From Bacilli bacterium (GTDB lineage: Bacteria > Bacillota_I > Bacilli_A > RFN20 > CAG-826): DNA of 64,000 bases. The stretch spans positions 4,912 to 68,911 of the forward strand of contig JAZQOV010000011.1 of assembly GCA_045628045.1 (NCBI GenBank), given 5' to 3'. Positions 20,773 through 22,908 of the stretch are shown piece by piece. Made by a program: the position numbers and the translations under genes. How positions within the stretch are numbered: the stretch's first letter is position 1; each line of letters begins with the position of its first letter. The notes beneath the pieces are model-generated. The model saw only the letters and a program-made list of their open reading frames with translations, was not told the DNA's origin and ran no database searches.

Positions 20773-22908
20773 ATGATTACCAAAAGTATTATTAAAGATT
20801 TTGTACATAGAAGATGCCCTTATTTAGCGAAGGCATCTTTAGATGATAATTCATTACTCAAGTTAATTGAAAGTTATTTAGAGTTTGGCACTAAAGAAGA
20901 TATTGAAGAAGCTATCCTTATGGGAGAGCAAGATGAACAAGATGATCCAAACTCTGATAACACGTTTGATATTCTAGAAATAATGAAAGATTACCCTTAT
21001 CTAAGAGGGGACATTGAAAAGCTCATTGATAAACACGCGAAAGAAAACCCGGTTTATGATCTTCAAAAGAAATATGATGATTCTCAAGTTAGTGCGAGAC
21101 TCTCTAGAAAATACATTGAACTTATTTATGGCAAAGAAAACTGCAAAAGATGCGATGTAAATGACTTTGGAGCGGAAACCTCTAATCAGAAGTTTATCGT
21201 GGAACGCACCAAAGAATATCTAAAAGATAAAAGCGTAAAAGTTCTTTTTGAAGGCCAAGTCGAACATAATGACTTAAGAGCAAGATTTGACGTTTTAATT
21301 AAAGAAGATAATGGCACTTTTACTCTTATTGAGGCTAAAGGAAGTAATTCTCCATTTACTCATCCAGATAAAAAGCCTGAAATTGATAGCGGAATTAAAA
21401 TTCCTTATTTATACGACCTTCTCTTCCAATATTATATTTACGTAAAAGAAGGTCTTAATATTTCAAAACTTGGTTATCTTCATCTTAATAAGGAATTCAC
21501 ATTTTCAAAGGAAAATGTAAACTATCCTGATTTATGTGATGAAGATATTAAGAATTTATTCAAACTTTCTTTTGAATTAAATTTAAAAATTAAAAAGGAT
21601 GAAACGGAACTAGTTCCTATCATCACATATTTTGATTCTGAGTTATACCTTAAACGAAACAAAGATGGTGAACCTACCATAACACCTATTGAAGATGTTA
21701 TTTACGAGATACGTTCTTTGGCTACCAAGTTTGAAATTAACCCTAACAAGCATTATGAATGTGTGAAAGGTGGAAAATGTCCTTTCTTATTATCATGCTT
21801 TAGCGATGCGGATGATGAAAACTCAATTTTAAAGCTCACTAGATGGGGCTCCTTTGGCGGATACTGGGGACGTTCTAAAAAGGCCCTCGAAGAAGGTATT
21901 TTACGTATTTCTGATTTACCTACAGCTTACATTGAAGAATATTCCTTACAAAGTGAAAAAGACGGCGTTATTAAGTATGGAAACGCAAGGTCTCAGATTT
22001 CCTTCCAACGTGAGTGGAAAGACAAAGGCTTTGACTACGTCATCCATACGAAATTAATGGAAGAAATCTTACGTAGAGACTACCTAAATGATGAGATTGA
22101 TTACCTTGTTTTCTTTGACTTTGAATCAATCCAAAATCCTGTGCCTTTGATGAGGGACGCTCATCCATGGCAACAGGTTGTTACCCAATACTCAATGCAC
22201 ATTGTTAAGAAGGGTTATGACCTCACAAAACATGACTTTGCGAAAGGAAGAGGTGGAGATTGTTCTCACTACGAATTCATTGGACATCCATCAAAAGATG
22301 GATATGTTAATCCTGAATTTGCATTATTTAAGACTTTAAGGGACCATCTTATTGATTTTGGTATTAATCCAATGGCGAAGAATTATCGCGTTGTTGTCTT
22401 TAACCAAAATTTTGAAAAAACAAGAATGAATGAGTTTGTAAGACTTTACATTTCTCATCCTGAAGTTGACGCGGATTTAGTCAACTTTGTGCAGAATTTT
22501 AATGACAATGTCGTTGATCTTCTTGATTTCTTCACAAGTGGCAGTTTTTATGGCAAAAAATTCAACGGAAGAGGCTCATTAAAGGTTGTTCAACCAACAT
22601 TATGTGAAGACGAAGATGTTCAAGCTTATTACGAGTCAATTAAGCTATCTTTTGACCTAAAACATTCCCTTGATTATCACAAAGAAGGCGCACTTGTTTA
22701 TAATGGCGGAATCTGCCTTGATTTATACAAAGCTTTGCTTATGAGGAATCACAAAAATCCTCAAGATAATGACCCGGATGAAGAGAAAATGCTTGCTCAA
22801 GCACTTGCGTATTGCAAGATCGATTCGTGGGGAACTGTTATCATTTATGACGTTCTAAAGCACGTCTTAGATGGTAAGATAAAAATCAAAGCGAAATTCT
22901 TATCTTAA
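20773..22908 (+). CDS. RecB-family PD-(D/E)xK nuclease domain protein with Cys cluster and C-terminal DUF2779-like (possible DEDD/RNase H-like) domain
   Basis: Motif II/III FDVLIKED...LIEAKGS. QxxxY motif LFQYYIY. Cys cluster HYECVKGGKCPFLLSCF. C-terminal FFDFESIQNP (D-x-E). Confidence 0.5.
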   Translation: MITKSIIKDFVHRRCPYLAKASLDDNSLLKLIESYLEFGTKEDIEEAILMGEQDEQDDPNSDNTFDILEIMKDYPYLRGDIEKLIDKHAKENPVYDLQKKYDDSQVSARLSRKYIELIYGKENCKRCDVNDFGAETSNQKFIVERTKEYLKDKSVKVLFEGQVEHNDLRARFDVLIKEDNGTFTLIEAKGSNSPFTHPDKKPEIDSGIKIPYLYDLLFQYYIYVKEGLNISKLGYLHLNKEFTFSKENVNYPDLCDEDIKNLFKLSFELNLKIKKDETELVPIITYFDSELYLKRNKDGEPTITPIEDVIYEIRSLATKFEINPNKHYECVKGGKCPFLLSCFSDADDENSILKLTRWGSFGGYWGRSKKALEEGILRISDLPTAYIEEYSLQSEKDGVIKYGNARSQISFQREWKDKGFDYVIHTKLMEEILRRDYLNDEIDYLVFFDFESIQNPVPLMRDAHPWQQVVTQYSMHIVKKGYDLTKHDFAKGRGGDCSHYEFIGHPSKDGYVNPEFALFKTLRDHLIDFGINPMAKNYRVVVFNQNFEKTRMNEFVRLYISHPEVDADLVNFVQNFNDNVVDLLDFFTSGSFYGKKFNGRGSLKVVQPTLCEDEDVQAYYESIKLSFDLKHSLDYHKEGALVYNGGICLDLYKALLMRNHKNPQDNDPDEEKMLAQALAYCKIDSWGTVIIYDVLKHVLDGKIKIKAKFLS

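Follow-up and report, generated by a model that had tools for sequence, protein, structure and literature searches.

What is a bacterial protein for when two predicted nucleases share its single chain, and does the company of toxin-antitoxin (TA) and Fic genes make it part of a defence system? This question is raised by a protein of 711 amino acids (aa) encoded in 64,000 nucleotides (nt) of DNA from a Bacilli bacterium (assembly GCA_045628045.1, contig JAZQOV010000011.1, positions 4,912 to 68,911; the whole stretch is called here the window, and positions are counted from its first letter). An earlier note, made from the sequence alone, had described a RecB-like PD-(D/E)xK nuclease with a cysteine cluster and a DnaQ-like C-terminal domain, and had suggested from its location a stand-alone defence or DNA-processing nuclease. 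The protein is a member of PF11074 (DUF2779), a biochemically uncharacterised family. The evidence gathered here supports two nuclease domains with full predicted catalytic sets, and it inclines slightly towards an enzyme that would degrade DNA from both ends and would belong to the resident chromosome.

The 711-aa protein and its two nuclease domains

The gene was found in the open reading frame (ORF) list exactly where the earlier note had placed it, with an ATG start and a TAA stop (Table 1). A database search gave 107 homologues with E <= 0.001, nearly all of full length (685-730 aa) and all with PF11074; those that carry a name are all annotated as 'DUF2779 domain-containing protein' and come from uncultured Bacilli. 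Two sets of relatives were used to follow the conservation of the motifs. The close set is an alignment of 31 sequences, down to 35% identity, in which the MITK start is kept in all homologues. The distant set comes from a HMMER scan of 1.84 billion cluster representatives, which gave 2,972 clusters (50% identity) with E <= 0.001; it consists of the 119 representatives of at least 400 aa found among the best 150 of these clusters.

All the residues of the motif rows in Table 1 are invariant in the 31-sequence alignment. Within the distant set, D173, E187, K189, D215 and Q219 are kept in practically all sequences whose alignment reaches these positions; D449 and E451 are kept in 119 of 119 relatives and E548 in 116, and a YCxxD motif is located within the C-terminal tail of 114. 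On these alignments the motif pattern is not due to chance, because there are 107 homologues and the residues are invariant down to 35% identity. The motifs named previously (D...E-A-K, QxxxY, the four cysteines and FFDFES) are all present at the positions listed in Table 1.

The AlphaFold model of the whole chain (predicted local distance difference test, pLDDT, 88.2; predicted template modelling score, pTM, 0.84) was used for fold searches, and matches were obtained in both nuclease classes. The N-terminal domain shows the PD-(D/E)xK fold, the D...(D/E)xK triad and the RecB-type QxxxY motif, as in Cas4, and its fold matches were Cas4-Cas1 (9.4), Exo5 (8.6), Dna2 (8.5), MGME1 (8.4) and Cas4 (8.4). 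The C-terminal domain shows the RNase H-like exonuclease fold of DEDD enzymes, with DNA polymerase proofreading domains as its best matches, and its motifs follow the DEDDy pattern: D449-F-E451, N544-Q-N-F547-E548 and Y680-C-K-I-D684. Motifs and model together support the assignment of residues ~1-345 as a Cas4/RecB/Exo5-type PD-(D/E)xK nuclease and of residues ~441-711 as a DEDDy (DnaQ-like, polymerase-proofreading-type) domain, each with its predicted catalytic set complete. The two-nuclease architecture of the earlier note is upheld on the two points that it had itself singled out, since nuclease folds were found and the catalytic residues are conserved among homologues.

As the note had anticipated, the Pfam scan placed DUF2779 on the C-terminal part of the chain (aa 446-602, with E 2.7e-22, a score of 79.8 bits where the cutoff is 23.3, and all 126 profile positions covered); the Cas4 and RNase_T models which it had also listed were not matched, and neither was DNA_pol_A_exo1 in the C-terminal domain. 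No helicase, ATPase or sensor domain was detected in the 711-aa chain. The protein differs from the wider DUF2779 family in length, the family having a median of ~500 aa and the subclade considered here, from uncultured gut or rumen Bacilli, ~700 aa. An extra helical insert of ~96 aa follows the first cysteine; aa 41-61 of the chain, which belong to it, are of low confidence or disordered in the AlphaFold model, and the distant relatives (median length 499 aa) align only from about profile position 130.

Table 1. Coordinates, within the window, of the DUF2779 gene, the domains and motifs of its product, and the neighbouring features
Feature	Position	Strand	Basis or remark
Complete gene, DUF2779-family two-nuclease protein	20773-22908	+	ORF list, homologues, Pfam PF11074
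N-terminal helix pair, aa 1-24, with C15 as first cysteine of the putative Cas4-type four-cysteine (Fe-S) set	20773-20844	+	C15 conservation
C15	20815-20817	+	sequence
Helical insert of ~96 aa (aa 25-120), specific to the ~700-aa subclade	20845-21132	+	AlphaFold confidence profile, distant-relative alignment
Predicted PD-(D/E)xK (Cas4/RecB/Exo5-like) nuclease core, aa 121-345: E160, D173, E187-x-K189, D215, Q219-x3-Y223, C330-x5-C336-x5-C342	21133-21807	+	
RFDVL (D173)	21283-21297	+	sequence
E187-A-K189	21331-21339	+	sequence
D215..Q219-YYI-Y223	21415-21441	+	sequence
C330-x5-C336-x5-C342	21760-21798	+	sequence
Small alpha/beta region bridging the nuclease domains, aa 346-440, with invariant G363 and Q408	21808-22092	+	AlphaFold secondary structure and confidence
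Predicted DUF2779 / DEDDy 3'-5' exonuclease domain, aa 441-711: Exo I D449-x-E451, Exo II N544-x2-F547-E548, Exo III Y680-x3-D684	22093-22905	+	
VFFDFES (D449/E451)	22108-22128	+	sequence
FNQNFE (N544, F547, E548)	22399-22416	+	exonuclease motif absent from the earlier note
YCKID (Y680, D684)	22810-22824	+	exonuclease motif absent from the earlier note
Terminator-like hairpin, 10-bp stem then T-rich tail	22914-22946	+	6 nt past the stop; terminator scan and sequence, consensus match only
Fic gene	11827-12711	-	Fic domain
Fic gene	18156-19214	+	PADLOC SoFic model, E 4.5e-34
HTH-Xre/YafQ TA pair	19725-20605		upstream of the DUF2779 gene
Phd/YefM antitoxin, intact	23152-23409		downstream of the DUF2779 gene

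The cysteine set

One N-terminal and three C-terminal cysteines make up the layout of the [4Fe-4S] site in Cas4, AddB, Dna2 and Exo5; in Cas4 the cluster bound by the four can be [4Fe-4S] or [2Fe-2S]. In the 711-aa protein C15, C330, C336 and C342, the last three spaced as C-x5-C-x5-C, are invariant in the 31 sequences and widespread in distant relatives: the three C-terminal cysteines are kept in 83-97 of the 119 sequences, and a cysteine among the first 40 residues, in a context that is alike (..SKS.....QC.K.LWL), is found in 108. The one-plus-three arrangement resembles the iron-sulfur (Fe-S) site of the four enzymes mentioned, and by analogy with them the four residues may come together in space and bind a cluster. 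The Cas4/AddB-like cluster suggested in the earlier note is retained in this form, as four present and conserved cysteines of a putative Fe-S site. A second pair, C124-x2-C127, was considered as part of the metal site and rejected. It is kept only in the nearest clades and is unlikely to belong to the core site, because it is lost in more distant full-length relatives, whereas C15, C330, C336 and C342 persist.

Family members and previous descriptions

PF11074 has been classified as family F.17 within the 3'-5' exonuclease clade of the RNase-H-like superfamily, where it co-occurs with DUF83, a Cas4-like PD-(D/E)xK domain (Majorek et al. 2014, PMC3985635). One member, MMSYN1_0389, a quasi-essential protein of JCVI-syn3.0, has been presented as a Cas4-like nuclease fused to a DEDD nuclease with a histidine-to-tyrosine change (2026, PMC13621843). 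According to the same work its HHpred matches are Cas4 (7MID, E 2e-6) and MrfB (8UN9, E 5e-7), both domains are judged likely active and two of the four cysteines survive; its authors consider that a role beyond immunity must exist, and the family is filed there under 'immunity-related functions' owing to the Cas4 link (PMC13621843). A transposon mutant of the DUF2779 gene Mbov_0804 of M. bovis showed normal axenic growth and poor growth in cell culture, and it was obtained in the same screen as mutants of HolA, a DnaB-like protein, RecD, NrnA and GdpP (PMC7373297).

The domain order described for the family (an N-terminal Cas4/DUF83-like PD-(D/E)xK domain followed by an RNase-H-like exonuclease; Majorek et al. 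2014; mSphere 2026) is also that of the 711-aa protein, which shares it, as Cas4-like PD-(D/E)xK plus DEDDy, with MMSYN1_0389, Mbov_0804 and the UU173 family of Ureaplasma. The catalytic D...ExK and D-E-(D/E)-Y-D residues are the same in MMSYN1_0389 (PMC13621843) and in the 711-aa protein, whereas the cysteine set is complete in the latter, four of four, and half lost in the former, two of four. The NCBIfam model NF045869 (UU173 family) aligns to aa 16-591, across both domains, with 57.2 bits (E 1.5e-15); as this score lies below the cutoff of 225, the protein is homologous to the UU173 subfamily and stands outside it. The opinion of the earlier note that the dual-nuclease architecture was not a textbook system has to be corrected at this point, since the fusion was noted in 2014 (PMC3985635) and described in detail in 2026 for MMSYN1_0389 (PMC13621843). 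The two-nuclease fusion is already described, and the 711-aa protein adds no new architecture.

Proposed function and alternatives

The function that appears probable, although with modest confidence, is that of a stand-alone, helicase-less enzyme with two active sites which would degrade DNA from 5' and 3' ends and would serve repair or recombination and/or nucleotide recycling. By analogy with Cas4, Exo5 and Dna2, the N-terminal domain would engage free 5' ends of single-stranded DNA (ssDNA) and cut 5'->3', its structure perhaps stabilised by an Fe-S cluster, and the C-terminal DEDDy domain would remove nucleotides 3'->5', as its relatives do. Since a 5'->3' and a 3'->5' domain would act within one chain, this chain could degrade or trim ssDNA, or the frayed ends of duplexes, in both polarities, much as exonuclease VII (ExoVII) does, or RecJ plus ExoI. 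The likeness to ExoVII (XseAB) and to RecJ plus ExoI is one of function only, helicase-free degradation of ssDNA from 5' and 3' ends, as their folds are unrelated to that of the DUF2779 protein and there is no homology.

More tentatively, the gene may be a resident chromosomal housekeeping gene that acts on DNA repair or recombination intermediates and/or in nucleotide recycling, and the adjacent TA and Fic genes may be unrelated accessory insertions. This is in agreement with the quasi-essentiality of MMSYN1_0389, the company of the M. bovis mutant in its screen, variable and often housekeeping neighbours, nearly empty defence, phage and plasmid searches, and a G+C content of the gene that is unremarkable in relation to its surroundings. 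The predicted terminator and the 167-nt spacer 5' of the gene suggest that it is transcribed on its own.

The enzymes from which these activities are borrowed differ from the 711-aa protein in several ways. Compared with Cas4 (SSO0001, Pcal_0546, type I-C/I-G), Exo5, AddB and Dna2, it has a large insertion inside the core (~aa 230-325), a second nuclease fused to it, no cas neighbours, and neither a helicase partner nor a helicase domain. Compared with DEDDy and DEDDh exonucleases (family-B polymerase proofreading domains, MrfB, ERI1, TREX1, Pol III epsilon), it has neither a polymerase nor a helicase partner, and it carries extra invariants specific to the DUF2779 family, Q472-Y-S-x-H476, D582 and S602-L-K604. 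The COG2251 / TM0106-type 'RecB family nuclease' (PF13482 RNase_H_2 with DUF83) has a parallel architecture, Cas4-like plus clade-F RNase-H-like, with another exonuclease Pfam family and often tandem AAA domains (PMC3985635); it is set apart here by this description only.

Several observations weigh against the proposed DNA-end-degrading function or the domain assignments under it. The substrate (DNA or RNA), the polarity and the Fe-S binding are all drawn by analogy from relatives at 9-17% identity, and no paper with a biochemical assay of any DUF2779 family member was found in the literature. Searches of the PDB by sequence, whether started from the 711-aa protein or from a profile of the 31 sequences, returned nothing meaningful, so that the fold comparison was needed. 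A Pfam scan of the N-terminal domain at E <= 10, carried out with the window protein and seven homologues, gave no significant Cas4 or PDDEXK match; even at this lenient threshold the window protein had no Cas4 (PF01930) match at all, and one homologue had a sub-threshold one with E 1.8, in the cysteine region only. Because the Pfam Cas4 model is unmatched, although fold, catalytic motif and arrangement of the cysteines are like those of Cas4, the protein is not a Cas4 by sequence, and the N-terminal domain is better said to work like Cas4/Exo5 than to be a Cas4. The cysteine triad of canonical Cas4 is spaced C-x2-C-x5-C and that of the 711-aa protein C-x5-C-x5-C. Besides, the acidic residue of Exo II is Glu (E548) where classical DEDD enzymes, of the DEDDy and DEDDh types alike, have Asp; judged from the alignments, this is a conservative variant, itself conserved in the family, and the sole departure within the DEDD motifs.

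The remaining objections come from the gene's surroundings, and they speak at the same time for the first alternative, a stand-alone anti-phage or anti-plasmid nuclease in a variable TA/Fic (SoFic-like) island, with two domains that would break down incoming foreign DNA. Its TA and Fic genes give the window a defence-like or mobile-looking context, which the earlier note had described accurately as two TA loci plus Fic genes around the DUF2779 gene: the flanks are an Xre/YafQ pair, a Phd/ParE remnant and the Fic protein that matches SoFic. They differ even among 80%-identical relatives, as is expected of a variable region, and AAA_14/DUF4143 ATPases adjoin the DUF2779 gene in several loci. On plasmid NZ_CP104379 of Aliarcobacter butzleri (locus L032, 5728-9157) a distant homologue (22.5% identity) stands in a co-directional row of PD-(D/E)XK nuclease, DUF2779 and WYL-domain protein, and an ATP-dependent endonuclease and a DUF2130 protein are encoded close by; this setting is defence-like, unlike the Bacilli loci. 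In addition, two full-length DUF2779 paralogues occur in some metagenome-assembled genomes (L011 and L012 in JAZLFJ01; L015 and L023 in UBA4278); in one example they share 77% and 50% identity with the window protein, and the catalytic residues of both copies are intact. A simple housekeeping enzyme is not usually present twice, and the pairs may reflect either an early duplication or contamination of the bins. The listing under 'immunity-related functions' (PMC13621843) points in the same direction.

Nevertheless, the defence role is considered unlikely. In the scan suggested by the earlier note, no PADLOC model (PADLOC-DB v2) matched the 711-aa protein; the match was to the neighbouring Fic protein, as SoFic, and neither Fic gene of the window is present at the locus of close relatives. 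The PHROGs scan gave no match for the protein, and tblastn against 50,697 phage records gave none either; against 72,556 plasmid records it gave 7 matches, all distant and all on non-mobilizable plasmids. An all-against-all BLASTP of the flanking ORFs of 30 loci detected no neighbour common beyond local synteny, and no conserved partner or sensor gene; the most widespread neighbours, a SIR2 gene and an AAA_14/DUF4143 ATPase, occurred in 6 and ~5-7 loci, respectively. For two of the distant representatives the contigs were too short to inform about the gene's context. Ordinary metabolic genes surround many of the loci, with neighbours such as glycosyltransferase, Wzy_C (cell-surface polysaccharide-type), a tRNA-synt_1c class-I aminoacyl-tRNA synthetase, guanylate kinase, galactokinase, sugar-nucleotide enzymes and ATP-binding cassette (ABC) transporters. 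In the relatives with ~80% identity (loci L001 and L022) no TA or Fic genes are found beside the DUF2779 gene. The argument from location does not survive these results: the TA/Fic adjacency is peculiar to this genome and cannot be relied on as an indication that this gene serves defence. Furthermore, one member of the family is quasi-essential in a minimal cell that is cultured free of parasites (PMC13621843), and a dual nuclease without regulation, for which neither sensor nor inhibitor is evident, would be toxic to its own host. The simplest reading is that of a resident chromosomal gene with accessory genes coming and going around it.

The second alternative is a role in RNA processing or decay, in which the DEDDy domain would trim RNA 3' ends like RNase D, Rrp6 and ERI1, and RNA 5' ends would be the target of the PD-(D/E)xK domain, as they are of Rai1/Dxo1; such an enzyme could feed nucleotide recycling. 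It is in accordance with the recovery of the M. bovis DUF2779 mutant in the same screen as those of the nanoRNase NrnA and of GdpP (PMC7373297), and it is thought improbable to about the same degree as defence. The best fold matches of the C-terminal domain, being DNA polymerase proofreading domains, count against it. The same is true of the YCxxD Exo III motif, which presumably resembles that of family-B polymerases, and of the putative Fe-S cysteine layout, which is regarded as characteristic of DNA-end-processing nucleases. A trimmer of the CRISPR-adaptation type is very improbable; it would be a 'solo Cas4' fused to a DEDD exonuclease, the pair of activities by which prespacers are trimmed, depending on the CRISPR type. 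Neither in the window nor in the precomputed gene lists of loci L001-L009 was a cas gene detected, Rfam found no CRISPR repeat family in the window, the Pfam model Cas_Cas4 is unmatched, and the family is present in JCVI-syn3.0, which is not known to have a CRISPR system.

Genomic neighbourhood and other features of the window

DNA similarity between the window and the DUF2779 locus of the ~80%-identical relatives covers only 20773-22895. In L001 and L022 an EAL-domain gene is located 3' of the DUF2779 gene, and a 231-aa ORF without Pfam match overlaps its first 23 nt in an operon-like manner (L001 3737-4432, L022 5328-6023, L011 247-942). A remnant of this ORF was looked for in the window and none was found, the Xre/YafQ pair occupying its position. 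A pair of genes for proteins of 301 aa and 779 aa stays nearby, downstream, in both the window and the close relatives. In the window, as in several of the loci, a short ORF (85-89 aa) lies 3' of the gene and was considered as a small downstream partner; these ORFs are mutually unrelated (18-20% identity, no conserved columns) and were rejected as such.

Divergent from the DUF2779 gene and upstream of it, a 245-aa SIR2-family gene is found in L007 (7202-7939, minus strand), L013 and L014 (5151-5879, minus), L015 (4654-5385, minus), L019 and L028. The DUF2779 proteins of the loci with SIR2 are 38-50% identical to the window protein, and SIR2 is absent from the window and from most loci. In the window, the ORF that follows the Phd/YefM antitoxin (23405-23701, plus strand) is ParE/RelE-like, with a single in-frame TAA at ~23456 and otherwise open to a ParE-like C-terminus; from its sequence it appears to be the pseudogene of a toxin, retained next to the antitoxin gene.

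Other features are further from the DUF2779 gene. A SAM (S-adenosylmethionine) riboswitch, RF00162, is found at 17473-17559 on the plus strand (51.8 bits, E 5e-9), directly 5' of a 107-aa ORF without Pfam match (17557-17880), whose product is apparently under SAM control. The riboswitch-ORF junction is also found in L001 and L022 (~85% DNA identity), but on the other side of the DUF2779 gene, downstream and not upstream as in the window. A mobile element elsewhere in the window is represented by a TnpB / IS605 OrfB-type gene (49984-51132, minus strand) with OrfB_IS605 and Cas12f1-like TNB domains. Very large proteins are predicted at 13132-15582, 23891-27946 and 43505-46321; Listeria-Bacteroides (Flg_new) repeats occur in two of them and DUF285 ('Mycoplasma protein') in one. 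The ORFs at 34100-38488, 38557-42129 and 46334-48325 (1,462, 1,190 and 663 aa) have no Pfam match. These six are presumably surface proteins. The large proteins, together with a G+C content of ~32%, suggest a Mollicutes-like lineage of gut or rumen Bacilli.

Implications for the DUF2779 family

The contribution of this window is a good candidate for biochemical work, with both predicted catalytic sets and four cysteines, and not a new concept. The family is large (~3,000 clusters when grouped at 50% identity), and one of its genes is among the few quasi-essential ones of JCVI-syn3.0 that are still unexplained. From the full cysteine quartet of the gut and rumen Bacilli subclade it can be argued that the putative Fe-S site is ancestral to DUF2779 and was lost in Mycoplasma mycoides, and the cysteine-complete subclade would be a better biochemical starting point than the cysteine-depleted Mycoplasma proteins.

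A broader and rather doubtful extension is that DUF2779 as a whole may be a class of helicase-independent, bidirectional DNA-end exonuclease, with an Fe-S Cas4/Exo5-like 5'->3' and a DEDDy 3'->5' activity, which would replace ExoVII, RecJ and ExoI-type functions in Bacilli and Mollicutes with reduced genomes. If this is true, such a replacement would explain the quasi-essentiality of MMSYN1_0389 in the minimal cell.

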